A DNA stretch of 64,000 nt, from the IMG/VR virus record IMGVR_UViG_3300044259_000036, positions 1-64,000 of that record; one strand, given 5' to 3'. The DNA comes from a virus (taxonomy: Duplodnaviria > Caudoviricetes). This document shows positions 1-20,500 of the stretch, piece after piece. The notes beneath the pieces are model-generated. The model did no database searches and was not told the origin of the DNA. It saw nothing but the letters and a program-made list of their open reading frames with translations. Position 1 is the first letter of the stretch. Every line of letters begins with the position of its first letter. The position numbers and the translations under genes were made by a program.

Positions 1-80
1 CCTCCTCATGGCCACCTTGATGGCCGAACTCATGGCCACCTTAGTGGCCGGGCTCAGTTGGAATTCAGGCTGCCAGTGAC

Positions 81-1049: not shown

Positions 1050-1331
1050 TCAGAAGCGGTAGGAAACTTTGTGGGCGGTGGGGGCGGCCTCGGGGGTGAC
1101 GCTGCCGTCGCGCCCCTTGACCAGTGTGATGACGCAAGTGGCTTCGCGGAAGTCGGCCATTTTGCCGGCCTTATCCAGCGCGGCATAGGTGGCGTTCAAT
1201 TCGTCCGCCATTGTCGCGCAGGTCACAAGGTCAGTTTCGGTCGGACCCTCCCAGCTTTGAGGCCGGTAGTAATTCGGGTCCGCGCCGATACTGGCGACCA
1301 CACTGATAGACAGGTAGGCCATGATTCCCAT
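1050..1331 (-). CDS. hypothetical protein
   Basis: 93-aa ORF coupled to the upstream gene by a TAATG overlap. Confidence 0.65.
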   Translation of the reverse strand: MGIMAYLSISVVASIGADPNYYRPQSWEGPTETDLVTCATMADELNATYAALDKAGKMADFREATCVITLVKGRDGSVTPEAAPTAHKVSYRF

Positions 1332-2293
1332 TAGGCGACGTCCTTAGCTTGCGGCTGGATGGCGTCCGGCGATTCGGCGATAGCCTTGATTTCACCAGTA
1401 AGCGCGGTCTCGGCCAGTGCCTGCGCGGCCTTGTTGCGAGATTGACGCGTGGTTGGCTTGCGGGTTTCCGCTTGGGCGGCGTTGGCTGCGCTTGCCGCTT
1501 GCTGGGCGGCGCGGTCGTCCTTGATCTTTTGGATCTCGGCCGGGGTAAGTGCCAGCGCTTGGGTAGTGGCGCGGACTTGCTCGGCACGGGCGGTCGCCTC
1601 GTTTGCGCGGTCCTCGGCGTCACGCAATTTGACCAGCGCGGCGTCTATATCGGCCTTGTTAGAGGCGCTGATTTGCGCTTGAACGGCATTTGCGAGCGTT
1701 CCAAGGTTGGCCAAAAGGTCGACCAGTTCCAAGGGGGCGCCGATAAGGAGGCTGTCAGACTGGGCTGCAATGGCCTTTTCCAGCGCCTTTACCAGTGATT
1801 TAGCCTGTACTGGCTTATTATCTTCGTCGGCACCTTTAACCTTTTCCGCTTTAAAGGCCTTGTATTCAGTGAAAGTTAGCGCAAAGTCGCCGTGTGGGCG
1901 GTAAAACTTTTCGTTAACTTCAATGATTTGCAGGTCAGCGGAAATCTCAGAATCGCCAACCGAAACGAAGTTTGTAGCCAGCGGGGAGTCTGGATTGTAC
2001 TTTTTAAGACCAATTTTCATGGTCTCTTTATCGTAGGTCAAACGCGGGTAGTGCGCTTGGGCATACTGGTACACTTCCATACCCAACTTATTCAGGCCGC
2101 CGTTTGCAAGGCGAAACGCCCGGCAATCGAACATATCATACAACCAATTGCCGTTCTGGTTTTGTACCAGTTCAAGCATGGCACCGTTTGCCCATTGGGT
2201 AATGATTTCATCGGTCGAGTTCAACCGGCGGGCAAAAGCGGTAATGAGTGCCGGGGTAATGGCCTTGCCGCGTACAACAATTTGTTTAGTCAT
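1331..2293 (-). CDS. hypothetical (pre-)early protein with C-terminal Ala-rich coiled coil
   Basis: 320-aa ORF from ATG 2293 (MTKQIVV) with AGGA RBS; atypical lower-GC codon usage. Confidence 0.75.
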   Translation of the reverse strand: MTKQIVVRGKAITPALITAFARRLNSTDEIITQWANGAMLELVQNQNGNWLYDMFDCRAFRLANGGLNKLGMEVYQYAQAHYPRLTYDKETMKIGLKKYNPDSPLATNFVSVGDSEISADLQIIEVNEKFYRPHGDFALTFTEYKAFKAEKVKGADEDNKPVQAKSLVKALEKAIAAQSDSLLIGAPLELVDLLANLGTLANAVQAQISASNKADIDAALVKLRDAEDRANEATARAEQVRATTQALALTPAEIQKIKDDRAAQQAASAANAAQAETRKPTTRQSRNKAAQALAETALTGEIKAIAESPDAIQPQAKDVA

Positions 2294-2857
2294 TGTCGTT
2301 ATTCCTAATGCGTGGGAGTGTTTTCTAGACTGGGAACGATCCGCGCCCAGTCCGTAAACCACTCATAATCCTAATGCTAGTTCGGTATGCCTAGGCCTTG
2401 CGTAGGGGCAAGGCCTAGGGTTCTCGGTAGGCTGTCTGATATATCGGCTAGTCGTTATCACTAGACGTTGTAGCGGTTTGTTATGTTGCTTGTTTCCCTA
2501 AATTGTTAAGTGGTAGCACGCGCCTTATAAAGGTCACGCTATATCTGTCTATTACCTGTTATTGAAAGGTCAAACGATGATCTAAAGCCACTTGTGCGAT
2601 AGGTCGCCTAATTACTAGATAATACCCTGCAGCCCGTTAGCTCTATGCCTAGCCTCGGTTAAAAGGCTAGGTTATCTACTGTGCGCCCGTCGTATCCCAT
2701 GGGCGCCGGTTCTACGCTGTCACTGGTGACCATTAGATAAGGGGGTATGACGTCCCCTATTACAGTCGTGCAGCCGGCCGCATACTTGCCCCGCTCGGGC
2801 ATGTATGGTCGTGTGTCGTTATCTAGCTTGCCTAGGGCAAGTAGTAGACAGATATAG

Positions 2858-2871
2858 ATTGTTAAAGAGCG
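2858..2871 (-). promoter_or_regulatory. boxA antitermination element
   Basis: minus strand CGCTCTTTAACAAT matches the rrn boxA consensus GCTCTTTAACA. Confidence 0.7.
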
Positions 2872-2942
2872 GGGTAGGCCTAGGCCTAGTGCTAGCCAGT
2901 GGTGGCCTAGCGGTTGAATCAATTACTTACTGCATGGGGGTA

Positions 2943-2970
2943 AAGATAACACATAAGGGGATAAGAGCAA
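2943..2970 (-). promoter_or_regulatory. putative sigma70 promoter
   Basis: TTGCTC-N16-TATCTT with extended -10 TGn, about 70 nt upstream of boxA. Confidence 0.5.
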
Positions 2971-3138
2971 GCAAGAAAAGCAGATATTTCACACTAAATT
3001 TTGAGTGGTCAGCGTACCCACCCCACCCCCGTTTTTGAAGCACGGAAGAGACGTGCTACCCGCCTAGGTCAGCGCTAGAATTTTTTCTGATTTTTCGTTT
3101 TGGCCATTGCCCGACACCGACGCCCTCACCCAAACTCT

Positions 3139-3178
3139 CCTCCGCACTTACGTACTTACGTAACTCCGCACCTACGCA
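3139..3178. repeat. 8-bp-period array (nnTRCGYA-like)
   Basis: CCTCCGCA CTTACGTA CTTACGTA ACTCCGCA CCTACGCA. Confidence 0.7.
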
Positions 3179-3208
3179 CTCACCCAAGCACTCAAGGACA
3201 CCCTCGCC

Positions 3209-3985
3209 ATGGATCAAGGCCAGCGTCTCACCCGAGCCGAAACCCGCATCTCCACCGCCGAAGGCACCATCACCTCCCAAGGCAGCGCCATCTCCTCCCA
3301 CGCCCACCAGCTCAACGAGCACACGCAGACCCTGCACACCCTCACCCAGGCCGTCGATGGCCTCGTCGACATCCTCGAGGCCCAGCCCGCCGTCACCCCC
3401 GGCGCCTTGGTCAACACCCAGGTAGTCAACACCTGCCAGGGCGACTGCCAGGCCAAGGACAAGGCCAACCTGTTCACCGGCACCGTGCGCCCGGCCAGCG
3501 ACCCGAACACCACCCTCAGCATCGTTGACGGCGTGGTCCGCGCCCGCCTCGGCGCCCTGGATGACCAGCCGGCCGCCACCCGCCTCAAGATGCGCCTCCA
3601 GTCCGTCTCCCAGGTCAAGAGCGCTGACAACCCGCTGAGCCACTGCACCTTCCACGCCTGCGGCGAAGACCCGGTGTTCGGCAAGTACACCCCGAATGGC
3701 CACCTGAACTTCAGCGTGATCAACGAGGTGGCCGCCAAGCTGGTCGCCGGCCGCGACTACTACGTCGACCTGGTACTGGCCGCCCCTGTCGAGCTGGCAC
3801 CGCATCAGCAGCGCGTCGTCGCCGAGCATGCCGAGCTGCAGGAGCGCAATACCAAGCTGGGCGTGTTCTTCGGTACCGACGCCTACCACAAGCTGAAGGA
3901 CAGCGAGCGCAGCCGCCTGCTGCGTCAACACCAGTTGCAGACTGAGCTGCTGGAAGTCCTGTCCGAGCGCATCCGCGCGTTCTAA
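3209..3985 (+). CDS. multi-domain hypothetical protein (tail-fibre-like coil, small beta domain, crAss001_48-like C-terminal domain)
   Basis: 258 aa, AAGGA RBS; C-terminal HQQRVVAEHAELQER...LSERIRAF pattern. Confidence 0.75.
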   Translation: MDQGQRLTRAETRISTAEGTITSQGSAISSHAHQLNEHTQTLHTLTQAVDGLVDILEAQPAVTPGALVNTQVVNTCQGDCQAKDKANLFTGTVRPASDPNTTLSIVDGVVRARLGALDDQPAATRLKMRLQSVSQVKSADNPLSHCTFHACGEDPVFGKYTPNGHLNFSVINEVAAKLVAGRDYYVDLVLAAPVELAPHQQRVVAEHAELQERNTKLGVFFGTDAYHKLKDSERSRLLRQHQLQTELLEVLSERIRAF

Positions 3986-4133
3986 CCAGGCACCACGGCG
4001 CGATGCAACGTCGCGCCGTGACCTCGATCACGTCACATTCCCACCCAATCGCTAACAATTAAATGAAACGTTCCACCCACTCGGGTGTCTACGCCTGTCG
4101 CCGTTTGTCAAATCCCGGACCATGAGCTACGAC

Positions 4134-4157
4134 TTAATCCGGCGAACGCCGGACTAA
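4134..4157. promoter_or_regulatory. palindromic operator, copy 1
   Basis: TTAATCCG-GCGAACGC-CGGACTAA. Confidence 0.6.
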
Positions 4158-4257
4158 GTCATTACTTACATTTCTTTCACATATTATGTCCGTCATTCCG
4201 GGTAAATTAGTAGGCTTTTGTTTGACAAACGCGGTTTGTGAGCTTTCCTAAAGTGAG

Positions 4258-4281
4258 TTATTCCGCTAATCTCCGAATTAA
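4258..4281. promoter_or_regulatory. palindromic operator, copy 2
   Basis: TTATTCCG-CTAATCTC-CGAATTAA. Confidence 0.55.
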
Positions 4282-4373
4282 GTCGCGGTTACACCCGGCA
4301 GCAAGGATCGCTGCCAACCAATGGATTGACCCTGTGAGTACCCACAGCTGGGAAGGAATCTCACCCGCGACTT
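4280..4373 (+). ncRNA. candidate structured RNA or 5' leader (multi-stem junction)
   Basis: closing stem AAGTCGCGG/CCGCGACTT encloses GGCAGC/GCTGCC and CTGTG/CACAG hairpins; strand inferred from the downstream gene. Confidence 0.35.
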
Positions 4374-4688: not shown

Positions 4689-5232
4689 AAAGGCCCAAGC
4701 CGTATCCGCCAACTACAAGAACCTCCCGACCCCGGTCGAAGTGACCGATCTGGAGTCCCTGCGACTGGCTGACCCTTCCGTGTTCGATGCTATCCAGATC
4801 GTCCTCGGCTGCCTGCGCAATGACATGCTCCCCGACGAAGTCCAGCTGGCCATCGTCGAGGCCATGTCGCCCAACACCCGCCGTACCATCGTGCAGCAGA
4901 TCGCCGGCCTCGATGCCAGTGTGCTCATGACCTTCAAGCAGCAGATCAGCCTGGTGGACAACGTGCTTCGGCGCGTGGTGACGCCAGAGGGCCAGGCCAT
5001 CCCCAGCGGCAGCGACTTAGGCATCTCCGTCAAGGACGCCATGAACATGTCGCTGAAGGTCTGCGGCATGCTCACCAAGGACTTGCCGAAGGTGTACAGC
5101 ATTGCCCGCGTCCAGCGCCTGGAGCAGGCCTTGCTCAACGTCGTCGAGACGTTGCCCAAGGTGGCTCAGGACACCGTGCTGGCCGAGCTGGAGAAGGAAG
5201 AAATGAAGGCGGCGAAAGAGGGGCGGCAATGA
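4681..5232 (+). CDS. hypothetical helical protein, terminase small subunit candidate
   Basis: 183 aa, upstream of the large terminase; function inferred from position only. Confidence 0.5.
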   Translation: MTEKAQAVSANYKNLPTPVEVTDLESLRLADPSVFDAIQIVLGCLRNDMLPDEVQLAIVEAMSPNTRRTIVQQIAGLDASVLMTFKQQISLVDNVLRRVVTPEGQAIPSGSDLGISVKDAMNMSLKVCGMLTKDLPKVYSIARVQRLEQALLNVVETLPKVAQDTVLAELEKEEMKAAKEGRQ

Positions 5233-5495
5233 CGAAAAAGCAAGCGCTGAAGAAGGGATTCGTCTACGAGGGCATGGTCGGCTATGTGCCGGTCTACCTC
5301 ACTGAGCTGCACAAGTTCGGCAAGGACCAGCCGGGCGTGTGCGCGAAGAACTGGCTGTGGGGCATCGTGCTCGACATCCAGGAATTTGCAACGCAGCTGG
5401 CCAATATGATCAAGGACCAGGACTACGTTGGCGACAACATCTTCTTCGGCGACCGCCTCGACGGCCAGCCCTACGGTGACAAGGAGTTCGACTGA
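5229..5495 (+). CDS. hypothetical protein
   Basis: 88 aa, ATGA overlap with the previous gene. Confidence 0.65.
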   Translation: MTKKQALKKGFVYEGMVGYVPVYLTELHKFGKDQPGVCAKNWLWGIVLDIQEFATQLANMIKDQDYVGDNIFFGDRLDGQPYGDKEFD

Positions 5496-6259: not shown

Positions 6260-8056
6260 ATGAGCAACGGCTCCGTCGCCCAGCGGTTCAGGATGGCCCT
6301 GAACCGCGAGGAGGGCATGAAGTCGCTAGACCAGGTAGCACTGGACTACGGCTACGTCGAGGGGGAGAAGTTCACCTTCGAGGACCACGAATACCAGATC
6401 GAGATCATGCGTGACACCGCGTCGCGCATCGACATCCGCAAGTGTTCCCAGGTCGGAGCATCGGAGCTGTGGGCGCAGAAGACCCTGGCCATGTGCGCTG
6501 TCCTGAAGAACATCCGCATCATGTTCAGCCAGCCCACCAAAGAGATGGCGGTCAAGTTCTCCAAGGACCGGATCGACGGGGTGATCGAGCAGAGCCCGTA
6601 CTACAGCGGCCTGGTCGCACCTGGTGGCAACGCCGCCGGCATGAAGAAGATCGGCAGCAACATGCTGTACATCATCGGTACCTTCGGCGCGAACTCGGCG
6701 ATCTCCATCCCCGCCGAGATCATCATCTGCGACGAAGTCGACTTCTCCAACGAGGTCGTCCTCGGCAAGCTGAACTCCCGCCTGCGTCACGCCAAGAGCG
6801 TCGATGCCCACGGCGACCGAGGCTTCCGGTACCGCTTCTCCACGCCTACGGTCGATGGTTTTGGCGTGGACAAGGGCTTCCAGAAGGGCGACCAGCGCTA
6901 TTACATGTGCAAGTGCGAGCACTGCTCACACTGGGTCGTGCCCGACTACATGACCGACTTCATCATCCCAGGCTGGGACAAGCCGATTATCGAGTTCGGC
7001 ATCGACAACCTCAGCGACAACGGGGTCGACATCGAGGCGTCCTGGATCAAGTGCAGCCACTGCGGCAACGACCTGTGGCCGTCCCTGTGCAACGCGGCCA
7101 ACCGCGAGTGGGTGGCCAAGTTCCCCACCAGGCACCGGCACAGCTACCAGATATACCCGTGGGACGTGCCGAAGTACAACACGCCGGCCGCGATCGCCCG
7201 CCAGTACGACGACTATCCGATCAAGAGTGACTTCTTCAACTTCGTGATCGGGCTGCCCTACTCCGACGCTGAGAACAGCTTCATCACCAACGACGAGCAC
7301 CGGGCGCGCGTCTGCGACGTGGACCTGTGGATCTTCGGCCGGTGGACAGTCCTGTGCCAAACGGTAGGCGGCATGGACGTCGGCAAGACCTGCCACCTGA
7401 CGGTTAAGGCCAAGGTCGGCAAGGGCTGGCACGTCGTGTGGATGGAGAAGATCGTCAACACCAAGCAGGACCCCGCCTACCTCAAGGTGATCCAGCGCTT
7501 CGACTTCTACCGCATGAAGAAGCTCTGCATCGACTCCGGCCCCGACATCACCCTGGTCAACCTGCTGGTCAGCGCGCGGGCCGAGATCAAGGCCGTCGTC
7601 TACACCAACGTGCCGGGCTTTATCCCGGTGGCCGAGGGACGCGGCGAGGACATCATCAACGCCGACCGGACCAAGACCCTGTCACTGCTGCTGGCCCAGC
7701 ACAACGGCGGCGACACGCACTACCCGCACAACGACGAACTGAAGCAGGAGCTGTTCAAGCACCTGGCCACGACCAAGAAGGTGAAGGAACGGGCGCAGGA
7801 CGGGACCCTGGTCGAGAAGTTCATCAAGACCGACCGCCAGGACCACTGGGTGCACTCGCTGAACTACGCCAACATCGCCGCGCTGGCGTGCGAGATGCTG
7901 GAAGACGACACCCTGGTCGGGGCCTTGCCACGCACGGGCCGGACACAGGTAGGCAGCGCCGTTGAAAAGCCGCAGACAGACTCGGCGCAGCTGATCGGAT
8001 CGGTGCTCGGCGGCATGTTCGGCGGCAGGGCCACTGGCTTTGGAAGGCGCAGATAA
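6260..8056 (+). CDS. terL: terminase large subunit (GpA-like)
   Basis: KCSQVGASE Walker A, IICDEVD Walker B, STPT, CxxC pairs, nuclease motif GGMDVG. Confidence 0.92.
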   Translation: MSNGSVAQRFRMALNREEGMKSLDQVALDYGYVEGEKFTFEDHEYQIEIMRDTASRIDIRKCSQVGASELWAQKTLAMCAVLKNIRIMFSQPTKEMAVKFSKDRIDGVIEQSPYYSGLVAPGGNAAGMKKIGSNMLYIIGTFGANSAISIPAEIIICDEVDFSNEVVLGKLNSRLRHAKSVDAHGDRGFRYRFSTPTVDGFGVDKGFQKGDQRYYMCKCEHCSHWVVPDYMTDFIIPGWDKPIIEFGIDNLSDNGVDIEASWIKCSHCGNDLWPSLCNAANREWVAKFPTRHRHSYQIYPWDVPKYNTPAAIARQYDDYPIKSDFFNFVIGLPYSDAENSFITNDEHRARVCDVDLWIFGRWTVLCQTVGGMDVGKTCHLTVKAKVGKGWHVVWMEKIVNTKQDPAYLKVIQRFDFYRMKKLCIDSGPDITLVNLLVSARAEIKAVVYTNVPGFIPVAEGRGEDIINADRTKTLSLLLAQHNGGDTHYPHNDELKQELFKHLATTKKVKERAQDGTLVEKFIKTDRQDHWVHSLNYANIAALACEMLEDDTLVGALPRTGRTQVGSAVEKPQTDSAQLIGSVLGGMFGGRATGFGRRR

Positions 8057-8187: not shown

Positions 8188-9651
8188 ATGGCCACGCCAA
8201 AGACCCCAGGCAGCACAGGATCGCGGTACCGGAATGCCGGTCCCAAGGTCATCATGCCGTCCAGGAATCTGGCGGGTAAGGTGCGCTCGAAGCGCCCAGG
8301 TTCAGATCAGGCCAAAGACACCACCATCACCAACACGCTGACCAGGTTCGCGGCCAATGCGGTCGAGAACGTAGCGAAGCGGACCGACGTCAACGAGATC
8401 ATCCGCGTGATGATCCGCGAGGACGGTCTGTTCAGCTCGGCGGCCAACTCGATGTGTGCTCTGTCTGCCGGTGCGGGTTACCGCATCGCCGGCTACGACG
8501 CCGCCGGCGCCATGAGCTTGGAAGTGATGGCCCTCGCCTACTCGATCATGGACGGCTTCGACGTCGACCACGATTACAGCAAGGGCTTCAACGACAAGCC
8601 GGGCGTGGACACGCTTCTGGCCACCATGCAGATGGACGTCATTTGCACGGGCGGCTGCGGTGTTGAGCTGGTACTGGACCCTGCCTTCGGGCCGGAGCGC
8701 CTGGTGCCTATCGGCTACTCCACCATCGAGTGGAACGCCGACGGCAAGGGCGGCCGGTACCCGTCGCAAGACGGCGGCAAGATCGACCTGAACCTGCCGA
8801 CCATTTTCGTGGCCGAGCACAACCGCAACGCGGACGAGGCCTACGCCGTGTCGCTGCTGCGGCCAGGCCTGACCCACACCATCAACTTCAACGGCTTCCT
8901 CGAAGACATGCACCGGGCGCTGAACCGCACCGGTCACAGCCGTCTGATCGCGACCATCTTGGCCGACAAGATCAAGGCAGCTGCGACCGACGAGGTGAAG
9001 GCAGATCCGGTGAAGATGGGCCAGCTGTACGACCAGGTGCGCACTGAGGTGATGGAAGCGTTGGCCGGTTTGGAGCCGGAAGACTCCGTCGTCACCTACG
9101 ACTCGGTCGAGTACGACATCAAGGACACCGGCGGCAACAAGGCCGACTACTCCGAGATGCTGACCACACTGGGCAACCTACTCGGCGTATCGCTGAAAAC
9201 CCCGGCATCCGTGTCGGGGCTGCGCGCCGGTGGTAGCCAAGCCCTGTCGAACGCCGAAACGCTTATCTACCTGCAGGTCACGCAAGGAACGCGGCCTCCG
9301 GTGGAAGAAGTGATGTCGCGCGCGCTGACCCTGGCCTGCCGGCTGAACGGCATCGACGGCTATGTGACCTTCGAGTTCCTGTCGATCGACCTGCGTCCGC
9401 AGGCTGAGCTGGAGGCGTACTACGGTACCCGCCTCAAGCGCATCCTCGAGCAGCTGAGCTGGGGGATCATCAACGAGGCACAGGCGTGCTGGGAACTGGG
9501 CCTGCGGCCACAGGGCTTGAACGCCGTCCTCGCTGGCACCCAGTTCTACGCCAAGAACGCATCAGCTGCACCTGATCCCGCGGAAGGGGATCGGACAACT
9601 TCAGCAGGAAAAGCGCTGAATCCGAGCACGCCGGCACAGTCCGGCAGCTAG
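8188..9651 (+). CDS. portal protein
   Basis: 487 aa, between terminase and protease. Confidence 0.8.
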   Translation: MATPKTPGSTGSRYRNAGPKVIMPSRNLAGKVRSKRPGSDQAKDTTITNTLTRFAANAVENVAKRTDVNEIIRVMIREDGLFSSAANSMCALSAGAGYRIAGYDAAGAMSLEVMALAYSIMDGFDVDHDYSKGFNDKPGVDTLLATMQMDVICTGGCGVELVLDPAFGPERLVPIGYSTIEWNADGKGGRYPSQDGGKIDLNLPTIFVAEHNRNADEAYAVSLLRPGLTHTINFNGFLEDMHRALNRTGHSRLIATILADKIKAAATDEVKADPVKMGQLYDQVRTEVMEALAGLEPEDSVVTYDSVEYDIKDTGGNKADYSEMLTTLGNLLGVSLKTPASVSGLRAGGSQALSNAETLIYLQVTQGTRPPVEEVMSRALTLACRLNGIDGYVTFEFLSIDLRPQAELEAYYGTRLKRILEQLSWGIINEAQACWELGLRPQGLNAVLAGTQFYAKNASAAPDPAEGDRTTSAGKALNPSTPAQSGS

Positions 9652-9693
9652 TAACGCCGGCAACACCGGCCACAACCAGAAAGGAGTCTGGAC

Positions 9694-11151
9694 GTGGAAG
9701 CGATCATCTGGCTGGGCTCCCAGTCTGCCCTCGACGTGCTCAAGAGCTTCGAGGTCAAGTATCAGTACGACCCCGAGGCCAGCGCCCGTGGTCGTTACGA
9801 CGACGACTACGAAGACAGCACTGACCCTGTCTACGGCGTACAGACCTCCCGCATCGGCCTGACCGTGCTGGAGCGCGTGCGCGGCACCAACGTACTCAAG
9901 GTGCATGGCTCGCTGACCCCGTCCTTCCAACGCTGGCATGCCTGGTTCCCAGGCTTCGTCACCAGCTACGACGCCATCAAGGACGCCCTGGCCATCCTGC
10001 AGGAAGCAGGTGAAACCAAGGTCCTGATGGACTTCGCAACGGGCGGCGGCGCCGTGCGTGGCCTGGACACTGTCACCACCGCCATGTCCCGTGCACGCCA
10101 GAACGGCCTGCGCATCGACGGTCACACCGACAACAGCGCGTTCTCCGCCGGCTACTGGCTCATGGCGGGCTGCCAGACGCTGACTGCCAGCCGGATGGCT
10201 GAGGTCGGCTCGATCGGCACGCTGATGGTCCTGTCCACCTATGCCAACACCGAGGAGACCTTCGGGGTCACCTTCACCGTGCTCAAGGAAGGCAAGTTCA
10301 AGGCCGTAGGCAACCCCTACGAGAGCATGAGTGAAAGCGACAAGGCGTACCTGCAAAAGAGCCTCCGGGAGACCAACCAGTTCTTCCTGGAGCATGTGTC
10401 CAGCAATCGTAGCCTGTCCCTGGAGGACACCGATCGCTGGGCTGAAGGACAGACCTTCTACGCGGCCAAGGCCGTGAAGTTGGGCTTGATCGACCGGGTA
10501 ACCACTCTGGACGATCTTCTTGGAAGCGGCCCGTCCGCACACAACCCTGGCGAAAAAAGGAATTTTGGCATGGTTATCTCCGCCGAAAAACTCGCTCAGA
10601 TCGAGGCGGGCGCAGCACCAGAAAGCGTCCTCACCGCCGAAGAACTGAAGCACTACAACGAAACCCTGGCCGCCGAAGCAGCGACCGCAGAAGAAGCGGC
10701 AGCCGCCGCAGCCACTGCCGAAGCTGAAGCCGCCGCTGCCACTCCGAAAGACGACAACGACCCGGCCGCCGCGCCAGTCGCGTCTGCAGGTGACACCGAT
10801 GCGCTGCACAAGGCGCTGAAGGAAAACGGCAAGCTGGAAGCCAAGGTCGAGGACCTGCAGGGTCAGATCGAAAAGCTCCAGGCCGACCTGACCGCCGTCA
10901 AGGCTGAAGGCTCCGCCCTGCTCGTCGTGGCCCAGGCTGCCGTCGAGAAGCTGCAGAACGCCACCAAGAGCCCCAAGGAAACCAAGTCCACTGCTACCGA
11001 GGTCATCGGTCAGTACAACGACCTCCAGGCCAAGATGGCGACCATGTTCAAAACCGGCCAGCAGAGCAACCCTGCCCCGGTGGCGGACAACACCCAAGAG
11101 CAGCAGGCGAACTTCCGCCAGAAAGCTCAGCAACAAAACCAAGGCCGCTAA
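9694..11151 (+). CDS. S49 prohead protease with C-terminal scaffold
   Basis: DFATGGG, AFSAGYWL, EVGSIG S49 motifs; Ala/Glu-rich coiled C-terminus; GTG start. Confidence 0.88.
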   Translation: MEAIIWLGSQSALDVLKSFEVKYQYDPEASARGRYDDDYEDSTDPVYGVQTSRIGLTVLERVRGTNVLKVHGSLTPSFQRWHAWFPGFVTSYDAIKDALAILQEAGETKVLMDFATGGGAVRGLDTVTTAMSRARQNGLRIDGHTDNSAFSAGYWLMAGCQTLTASRMAEVGSIGTLMVLSTYANTEETFGVTFTVLKEGKFKAVGNPYESMSESDKAYLQKSLRETNQFFLEHVSSNRSLSLEDTDRWAEGQTFYAAKAVKLGLIDRVTTLDDLLGSGPSAHNPGEKRNFGMVISAEKLAQIEAGAAPESVLTAEELKHYNETLAAEAATAEEAAAAAATAEAEAAAATPKDDNDPAAAPVASAGDTDALHKALKENGKLEAKVEDLQGQIEKLQADLTAVKAEGSALLVVAQAAVEKLQNATKSPKETKSTATEVIGQYNDLQAKMATMFKTGQQSNPAPVADNTQEQQANFRQKAQQQNQGR

Positions 11152-17590: not shown

Positions 17591-20500
17591 ATGGCAGAAT
17601 TTGACGTTGGCCTAAACGGGGCGCAGCAGCAGGTCGCTGCCCTCGTTTCCGCAGTACACGGGCTGGGCAAGAGCCTGGACCAGACGGAGTTCAAGTCGAA
17701 AGGCTTGGCTACCGAGGTCGCGCGTGCCATGTCCGCAATGGACTTGGTGTACGACCGACTTCACCGGAGTATGCAGAAGGCCGGCGACTCGTCTGCCGAC
17801 ATCAACAAAGCACTTGAACACGCCAAGGTCATTGCGCAGAACGTTTTCGCAAGCGTCGCTGCCTCCAACCTGAAGGCCACTGTACAGGCGCAGGCGTACA
17901 CGGGGTCGCTCACTGAGCTGCAGCGGGTCCTGAACGACACCCAGTCGAAGAACACCTACGTCCGCTGGCAGCAGAAAACCGCCCAGCTGACCAACAACCT
18001 CATTGGCGAGAACGCCCACCTGCAGCAGGTGATCGCGTCGCTGACCACTGAGGAAGGCCGCCGCAACGCCAACCTGAAGGTACAGGCTGCCGGCCTGCGC
18101 GAACTGGTAACGGCTGAAGACCGGCTGATCAATGCCCACAACAGCCTGACCCAGGCCTCTGGCCTACTCGACACGGCGCTCGGCCGCGAGACGGCCAACC
18201 TGCGCGTGCAGAACGCTGCCAAGGAACGGCTGATCACGCTGGATACCCGCATCCAGGCCAACTCCGAGGCCCTGCGGGCGAGCATCGCCAACCTCAGCAC
18301 CGAGGAAGGGCGCCAGAACGCGATCCTGAAGGTACAGGAGCAGAGCAAGCGCTCGCTGTTGACCGCCGACGCTCGAATGACGGCCAGCAACTCTGCCCTG
18401 CTCCAGTCGATCACGGCGCTGGACGGCCATTTAGGCAAGCTGAATGCCCAGTTGAAGGTCACCCTGCAAGGCAAGACCGCAGAGGTCACCGCCGACGCGC
18501 GTCTGGCCAACTCGACGCAGGCCCTGTACACCAAGCTGGAGCAGCTGAACACCGCCAAGGGTCACGACAACGTCCTGACCCAGCAGGCCGTGGCCACCAG
18601 GAAGGCTGAGATCACCGAAGCCGCCCGCCTCGAAGCGAAGCTGGCTGCCCTGCAGCGCGAGTACATGAGCCTCAACGGCGGCGTGCAGGAGCAGATCGCC
18701 AAGATGCAGCAGTTGATCCAGGCTCGGAAGGCCGGGATCACCGAGGGCGCGCGGGAGGAAACGCAACTCGAACGCCTGCGCCGCACCCTGGCCAGCCTGA
18801 ACGGTGGCAGGCAGGAGGAGATCACCAAGCTCAACGCGCAGATCTCCATCCGCCGCAAGGCCATTGTCGAGACCATCAAGCAGAAGGACGTGGTCGACGA
18901 GCAGGCCGCCGCCCTCGCACGCGAGCAGGCCCAGCTGCAGAAGCTCCAGCAGCAGATGACGCTGGCCAGCAGTGCCCGTGGCGCCGAGATCACCAAGCTC
19001 AAGCAGCAAATCATCGAGCAAGAGCGCTACAACAAGCTCTTGAACAAGACGACCCTGGAGCTGCTGGGCTTCGAGAACGCACAACGCCGGGCCAGCCAGT
19101 CCAACCTGGTGGGTTCGCAGTCGGCGGCGATGCTCCGTGCAGGGCTGTCCGGCCTGCAAACCAACATCGGCATGTACACCAGTGCCACGATCGTCGCGGC
19201 GGCCTCGACCTACGCGCTGGCCCGAGCACTGCGCAGCACTGTCGAGCTGGGCGCCGAGTTCACTGCGTCCATGGCCAAAGCCGACGCTGTGATGGGCACC
19301 GGTGTAGCAAGCTGGATGCCGACCTCCATGGAAGCCATGGAGGCGCAGGTCCGCGCGCTCGGCCAGTCCACCATGTACACCGCCAGTGAAGTCGCACTTG
19401 GCCTGGTGGAATTGGGCCAGGCAGGCTTGAACGCTGCTGACTCGATCATGGCCCTGAAACCGGCCCTGAACCTGGCAATGATCGGCGGCATCTCGATGGC
19501 TGAGTCTGCGGACATGGCCACCAACGTCATGATGACGTTCGGCATGCAGGCCAAGGACCTGACGGACATCGTGGACTTGATGGCCACAGCGGCCAGCCAG
19601 TCCAACACCAACGTGCAGCAGCTGGCCAACGCCCTGACCTACGCTGGTCCGGCCGCGCACACCGCCGGCATCTCGATGAAGGACACCACGGCCGCGGTCG
19701 AGGCCCTGTCCAACACCGGTATCAAGGCCTCCCGCGCCGGTACCAGCTTGCGTAAGCTGTTCGTCAGCTTGCTGAACCCGACCAAGAAAGGTCAGCAGAT
19801 GATGGCCGAGTACGGCATCTCTGTAACCGACCTGGAGGGCAAGACCCGAAGCCTGACCGACATTCTCGGCCAGCTGAACAAAGCATTGAAGGGCGTAGGC
19901 GAAGGCGAGCGACTGGGGGCCATTCAGGACCTGGTAGGCCTGTACGCAACCTCGTCGGTCGCTGCACTGGTCGAGCAGGCCGGCGAAGGTGGCAACCTGG
20001 AGCACCTGCGTCGCCAACTGGACGATACTGCCGGCGCGGCCGAAGAAATGCGCGGCAAGATGGAGAACAGCCTAAAGTTCGACTGGAAGCAGGTGCTTTC
20101 GGCCTTCGAGGAAGCACAACTCCAGCTGTTCGATGCGCATGAGTACCAGCTGCGTGTGGCCACGGCCAAGCTGTCGACCTACCTGATTGAGCTGACCAAG
20201 CCAGCAGCTGAGATCAAGGACCAGTACGGGAACGTCACCGCGACGTTCAGCCATCTGGACCTGATGCTGCAGAACGGTAAGGAACTGGCCACAGGCCTGG
20301 GTATTGCGATCGCCGCAGCGCTCAGCTTCAAGATGACCGGCGCCTTGAGTGCGTCCCTCACTGCACTGTCCGTGGACAGTACAGCGGCGGCGGCGCGTCT
20401 CAAGGTACTGGCTGTCGGGATGGCTGACGGTACCCGAGGAACCTTGACGCTCTCCGGCGCCCTGAACGGCCTGTACGGTACCCTCGGTAGAGCGGTGGTA

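Follow-up and report, generated by a model that had tools for sequence, protein, structure and literature searches.

Layout of the leader and its surroundings

The window (the whole stretch of DNA analysed here, 64,000 nucleotides) corresponds to bases 1-64000 of a circularly assembled phage contig of 91.6 kb, the terminase of which (window gene 6260-8056) is 64-70% identical to those of the Pseudomonas phages PMBT3, Lana and UAntarctica. A gap of 915 nt separates the start of a minus-strand gene (2293) from a plus-strand gene (3209); in it, an initial annotation had recognized a non-coding leader with nested base-pairing behind a promoter and a boxA; every element it listed was found back at its position. 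Since the open reading frames (ORFs) from about 39.8 kb round the circle to 2.3 kb lie mostly on the minus strand, the leftward promoter in this gap heads a long gene block that includes replication genes, and the leader is probably transcribed early in infection. Near 3000, the GC skew flips. In the direction of transcription, the region comprises the following features:

3021..3087, no strand assigned: DNA motif conserved in relatives, situated 5' of the promoter where the GC skew switches
2943..2970, minus strand: sigma70-type promoter, read from the sequence
2875..2906, minus strand: two short hairpins immediately 5' of boxA, at the position of rrn boxB (helix probability 0.8-0.9)
2860..2870, minus strand: boxA1, exact GYTCTTTAANA, exact in 17/17 loci
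2840..2857, minus strand: 5' (leader) arm of the outer helix P1, pairing with 2539-2556 (17 bp, mean pair probability 0.9)
2557..2839, minus strand: non-coding cargo domain, as a predicted fold only
2826-2820/2621-2615, minus strand: predicted inner stem of the cargo
2806-2782, 2706-2683 and 2671-2648, minus strand: predicted cargo hairpins
2774-2758/2739-2716, minus strand: predicted cargo stem
2539..2556, minus strand: 3' (trailer) arm of P1, pairing with the 5' arm
2504..2514, minus strand: decayed second boxA, with 4 mismatches in the window
2390..2419, minus strand: perfect 12-bp hairpin in the downstream leader (probability 1.0)
2316..2364, minus strand: conserved interrupted hairpin ahead of the ribosome binding site (consensus helix of a 15-locus alignment)
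1331..2293, minus strand: first gene of the transcript (320 aa), from an orphan family that all relatives conserve

The promoter combines a -35 element TTGCTC (2970-2965), a 16-nt spacer and an extended -10 element TG-TATCTT (2951-2943), with a predicted start near 2936; it was absent from the list of a consensus scanner and was read by eye at matching placement in relatives. Its spacer (2949-2964) holds a TTAT-N4-TTAT repeat, present in many relatives, as a candidate repressor operator. The upstream motif at 3021-3087, the sole blastn-detectable match to Lana and PMBT3, is a candidate terminus/packaging or protein-binding site. A genome-wide scan for boxA, with the consensus GYTCTTTAANA as given in PMC5725501, returned 2870-2860 as sole exact match and a single site with one mismatch, at 19036 on the plus strand.

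The window core contains no Shine-Dalgarno-led ORF. An 87-codon ORF with a TTG start exists at 2922-2659 on the minus strand and was rejected as coding cargo, as five of the six strain variants that fall in it hit codon positions 1-2. As had been suggested as a check, the window was searched against Rfam, with 0 matches, and the element has no hammerhead core. ARAGORN found nothing in the window, which removes a tRNA or tmRNA. Likewise rejected were a retron or other RNA associated with reverse transcriptase (no such family among 106 ORFs by Pfam, four YxDD-like words seen), an RsmA sponge (GGA not enriched), an antisense RNA to the phage's own genome (best match 12 nt) and a MITE (no target duplication by eye). 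The first gene has no PHROG or Pfam family, and no Foldseek match was obtained for it; other searches gave only coiled-coil rows (VIA-align) and only hypothetical viral clusters (Atlas).

In sequencing run X4, of which the RNA status is a guess, contigs cover 2097-3242 at a depth of 58-133, compared to 3.8 at 1300-1816. This coverage was not counted as expression, because the contigs overrun the promoter and, being contigs, say nothing about ends, strand or level. Over the same locus, three wastewater RNA-Seq runs are patchy and were flagged as probably DNA.

Several further observations concern the surrounding genome. The tetranucleotide CTAG is concentrated in the 646-nt leader 2295-2940, which holds 15 of the 38 sites of the genome, and leaders of relatives have 2-11. 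Contigs that start near the first gene (window 1-60; L088, L089, L090, L098 and L099) hint at a genome end or terminal repeat nearby. At 4070-4290, upstream of an HU-like gene, lie nested inverted repeats (4130-4161/4254-4285 and two similar hairpins) in which neither a tRNA nor an Rfam match was found in the window; PMBT3 and UAntarctica carry tRNA genes at the matching place. A ParA gene, a ribbon-helix-helix partner and a Replicase/PriCT RepA at 69503-71851 of the contig make the window phage look like a phage-plasmid. This RepA was not found in any of the five relatives searched, and PMBT3 was reportedly published as a lytic phage with turbid plaques.

Homologous leaders and the fold conserved in relatives

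Sixteen distinct homologous leaders were collected from annotated phages and from IMG/VR and metagenome contigs (two of them, L110 and L111, are 93% alike), which together with the window gives 17 loci. All 17 share one order: the conserved DNA motif, a sigma70-type promoter (by eye), GC-rich hairpins in the equivalent place before boxA, an exact boxA, 301-392 nt until a further boxA-like site is reached, some 220-300 nt with hairpins and the same orphan gene. The second boxA carries 1 mismatch in 13 loci, 2 in three and 4 in the window, and variable hairpins take the place of the hairpin at 2390-2419. None of the 17 cores has a Shine-Dalgarno-led ORF of more than 11 codons. With 25 shuffles each, the core folding z is at or below -2 in 15 of the 17 loci, and the promoter strand folds better in 16. 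In 10 relatives the element gave no Rfam match at the gathering threshold or at E<=5, bar one to HOTTIP_3 below threshold (20 bits compared to 50).

A metagenome motif scan returned 59 matches, five of which are true loci and one of these new. A search of viral contigs with the early gene alone and searches of bacterial genomes found no homologs, and a plasmid search for homologous loci gave nothing beyond terminase matches of 22-23%. In L094, the closest relative by terminase, a C4 antisense RNA (65 bits) lies among early genes at 5222-5316.

A consensus was derived from six close relatives aligned by sequence alone; a home-made structural alignment served only to build an HMM. The consensus has 89 pairs in six inner domains and an outer helix, which starts in the boxA tail and stops immediately short of the second boxA. 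The closed, multi-junction domain contains invariant loop sequences. In this alignment 92.8% of cells are paired, compared to 76.7 in shuffles and 30-40% in slid controls, and both sides have changed in 43 of the 89 pairs, compared to 22.6 in shuffles; 0 of 500 shuffles reach either value. The outer helix has double changes in 7 of its 18 pairs. As these counts use a structure derived from the very alignment that is counted, four held-out relatives were tested, in which 193 of 350 cells pair compared to 99-150 when slid. Helices P1 (41/70 compared to 17-18 slid) and P7 (51/60 compared to 15-29 slid), as well as P2, P6a and P6c, exceed the slid controls in this set, and P3, P4, P5 and P6b do no better than them. 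Covariance model R1 retrieved seven further relatives, with 15-122 bits and all on the promoter strand. The window, L021, L110 and L111 were not found by the family HMM or the covariance model.

The evidence on strand bears on the possibility that the repeats act as DNA, in terminus, packaging or injection control, with hairpins or short repeats binding proteins. The initial annotation had put forward such a DNA-level structure as alternative; it comes out weaker than the RNA reading and we regard it as improbable. Six of the eight metagenome contigs longer than 80 kb (window included, three isolate records excluded) begin no more than 3 kb from the first gene, and the distant relatives Seuss and EAb13 have terminal repeats of 1.7-2.2 kb a few kb upstream of the terminase, but nearness to a genome end can also be reconciled with the RNA reading. 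The abundance of CTAG, 17 times in the 915-nt gap compared to 0 in 1862 nt of five other gaps, speaks for a DNA signal; against it stands boxA, a signal that acts in RNA and points the same way as the promoter in every one of the 17 loci. The ratio of G-U to A-C counts, 16:11 (p 0.44), does not separate the strands, and the consensus fold is nearly as stable in antisense (-79.1 compared to -81.2). Conversely, nested multi-branched pairing over 300 nt, the better folding of the promoter strand in 16 of the 17 cores and strain variants of the window, which among those listed break four predicted pairs on the plus strand compared to two on the minus strand, all argue for RNA.

The outer helix and interior of the window

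The outer repeat of the window is perfect over 13 bp, a length reached in 2 of 1000 dinucleotide shuffles of 2295-2940, and lengthens to 20 nt at 90% identity. Among the nested repeats that had been singled out, this outer pair stands, whereas TTATCTA/TAGATAA (2672-2678/2734-2740), plain two-copy repeats, is not among the helices with a probability above 0.6 on either strand. The same holds for the proposed GGGG/CCCC hairpin at about 2742-2757. Dinucleotide shuffling had been named as a control on the folding energy: for the region 2530-2865 the minus strand reaches z -4.2 and the plus strand -3.4, the minus strand of 2295-2940 reaches -4.1, and no shuffle folded as well. In one test of the window core the antisense fold was the better one (-2.9 vs -3.4). 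Across loci, cross-pairing of the arms is noisy, with 7 of the 17 5' arms and 10 of the 17 3' arms pairing best with their own partner.

Compared to the family HMM and covariance model R1 of the PMBT3/Lana-type relatives, the interior of the window gave no match, and its identity to relatives (54-61%) is at the level of shuffled sequence (51-61%), which indicates that the window holds a different cargo within the same frame. None of the 16 relatives shares this cargo, so covariation does not test the window's interior. Of the two earlier proposals that this concerns, the structured, non-coding domain (about 320 nt) that follows promoter and boxA finds support in the 16 homologous leaders and in the covariation among relatives, and the comparison of homologous regions yielded the compensatory changes in six relatives; in both cases the window's own interior, having no homolog, stays outside that support. 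The proposed likeness to an rrn leader followed by a processing stem is supported by the same loci and covariation.

As the window's interior lacks homology to relatives, the evidence for its fold consists of the folding energy (z about -3 to -4) and 13 variants listed from near-identical strains. On the minus strand, 10 of these listed variants fall on unpaired or uncertain positions, one, at 2544 in P1, keeps its pair as G-U on this strand only, and two break a pair, one of them in the middle of the hairpin at 2648-2671; on the plus strand, four break predicted pairs and one is kept. These variants support the fold weakly. It might be argued that the window phage needs no more than promoter, boxA and outer stem and that the interior is a relic or a spacer free to drift, as it has no homology to the family interior, its second boxA has decayed and a hairpin-breaking variant is present in two of four sequencing runs. 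We consider this very unlikely, even less probable than a DNA signal: the distance from boxA to the boxA-like site is kept (368 nt compared to 301-392), the folding z is -3 to -4, and only 4 of the 13 listed variants fall on positions paired with a probability above 0.5, where 58% of positions are paired (p about 0.04).

Leader and first gene appear, from sequence comparison, to be exchanged as a module. This is indicated by the closest phage by terminase (L004, 86%), which shares only 34% identity in the first gene and has an interior of the family type; the window's first gene is closer to 12 other proteins (P0002-P0013, 47-83% identical to it) than to that of L004.

Proposed maturation and known systems

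We propose that the leader is an rRNA-operon-like cassette and that enzymes of the host free a folded RNA from it, out of the early mRNA, a reading to which we give about an even chance. Host sigma70 polymerase would initiate near 2936, and NusB/NusE with the other rrn antitermination factors would load on boxA, where they may protect some 640 untranslated bases against Rho and bring the polymerase into the long minus-strand gene block. The arm tethered beside boxA would then pair with the trailer arm, RNase III or another host nuclease would cut the helix and part a stable structured RNA from the downstream mRNA, and the released RNA would act in trans, most likely by binding a protein via its conserved loops. 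Because some phages have genes inside the frame and others have RNAs that are unrelated to one another, action in trans is favoured. We counted in support of the cassette the boxA1 that is exact in 17/17 loci and unique in the genome, the covariation, the strand preference, the missing coding frame, the similar frames of T5, My1 and K1-5 and the boxA of T7. Counted against it were the unrelated interior of the window, its two pair-breaking listed variants, the antisense fold, the noisy arms, the short P1 and the decayed second boxA.

Possible, though clearly less probable, is a fold that works only in cis, in the manner of put/EAR or of the lambda N leader, as an mRNA leader that releases no functional RNA but aids antitermination, mRNA stability or the translation of the first gene. 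The element does head a long minus-strand gene block, a conserved hairpin precedes the ribosome binding site, pairing between the second boxA and the Shine-Dalgarno sequence is predicted in many relatives, and boxA can also repress translation, as reported in PMC5725501. Yet the closed multi-junction domain, the invariant loops and the gene-enclosing frame in other phages fit a cargo better, and no boxB hairpin follows boxA.

The cassette resembles the bacterial rRNA operon (boxB-boxA-boxC, rrnTAC) in its promoter, upstream hairpin and exact boxA, and in the long helix that joins the sequences flanking a non-coding RNA; a second boxA-like site after the cargo is recognizable in relatives, with 1 or 2 mismatches, and has decayed in the window. 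According to PMC10250234 and PMC12360218, boxA of rRNA operons assembles a Nus complex, the flanks pair into a leader-trailer helix that contains an RNase III site, 23S is preceded by a second box set, and tethering by boxA is proposed to aid helix formation. The phage helix begins in or right after boxA, whereas that of the rRNA operon starts 18-19 nt downstream (PMC10250234). Of the rrn-type characteristics, a boxA after a host promoter and a long flanking helix are present and an rRNA or tRNA cargo is not: the cargo is 300-380 nt, protein genes follow and cutting is putative here. As the cargo is neither rRNA nor tRNA, the element would work like an rRNA operon without being one.

Early leaders of other phages share parts of this layout. 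In T7, promoter A3 is followed after 63 nt by an exact boxA, comparable to the boxA about 65 nt after the host promoter and before the first genes in our phages, but this T7 boxA has no strong long-range partner within 800 nt and no folded insert of 320 nt. It is described as an anti-termination element whose mutation makes Gp2 dispensable (PMC3709561). The boxA in the early leader and the large stem before the first gene also recall the lambda nut site and N leader; in our phages the long-range arm occupies the place after boxA where boxB would lie, and the first gene, which encodes a folded orphan protein of 320 aa, is not N-like. In lambda, boxB follows boxA, a large stem lies upstream of the first gene and the N protein takes part. 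RNA antiterminators of the HK022 put type are twin stem-loops that modify polymerase without Nus factors; our element gave no Rfam match. GOLLD, ROOL and C4 antisense RNA are phage-borne, multi-stem, processed or abundant RNAs; our element is likewise phage-borne and multi-stem, but is without Rfam match at gathering or E<=5.

A boxA in a phage early leader is already known. In the literature searchable here, no description was found of an rRNA-like cassette around an uncatalogued covarying RNA, nor of this RNA itself or of the T5/K1-5 cassettes; older subscription papers on phage genomes, possibly describing such boxA sites, lie outside that coverage. The 300-380 nt RNA family covaries, is absent from Rfam and is directly testable, as isolates exist (PMBT3, Lana, UAntarctica).

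Scans for paired boxA sites 285-346 nt apart gave at least 40 loci: five known family loci, six of other phages (L118/L141, L121, L132, L149 and L153), the others being tandem repeats or chance matches. In long non-coding regions, L121 and L153 carry three boxA sites together with repeated host promoters. In T5 (4988), My1 (7051 and 6747) and K1-5 (710 and 1255), boxA is directly followed by a helix of 27-36 bp whose partner lies 170-475 nt further on, enclosing short early genes. The trailer arm is directly followed by the next boxA in My1 and K1-5; L149 and L132 also have such boxA-helix sites. The injection stop signal of T5 (iss, 9140-10149) is separate from the T5 cassette, and the K1-5 cassette at 1255 contains an unannotated ORF led by a Shine-Dalgarno sequence. 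Our element has the same succession of a boxA and a long-range helix, often with the next boxA just after the trailer arm. The helices of T5, My1 and K1-5 are nearly perfect, whereas P1 measures 17-20 bp and is bulged. As those helices enclose short ORFs, the boxA-helix frame takes different cargo.

More speculatively, and rather doubtfully, several unrelated phage groups may use such a mini rRNA-operon cassette as a general expression unit of the first minute, into which PMBT3/Lana-like phages would load exchangeable structured RNAs as decoys or inhibitors of host proteins, for example of defence systems. If true, this would define a class of early RNA effectors matured by the ribosome-biogenesis machinery. 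The comparison suggests an N-independent use of the host rRNA antitermination/folding complex with leader-trailer helices, common to T5-like, K1-5-like and these Pseudomonas phages, and offers small natural substrates for the question whether boxA-bound Nus factors chaperone long-range helix formation.
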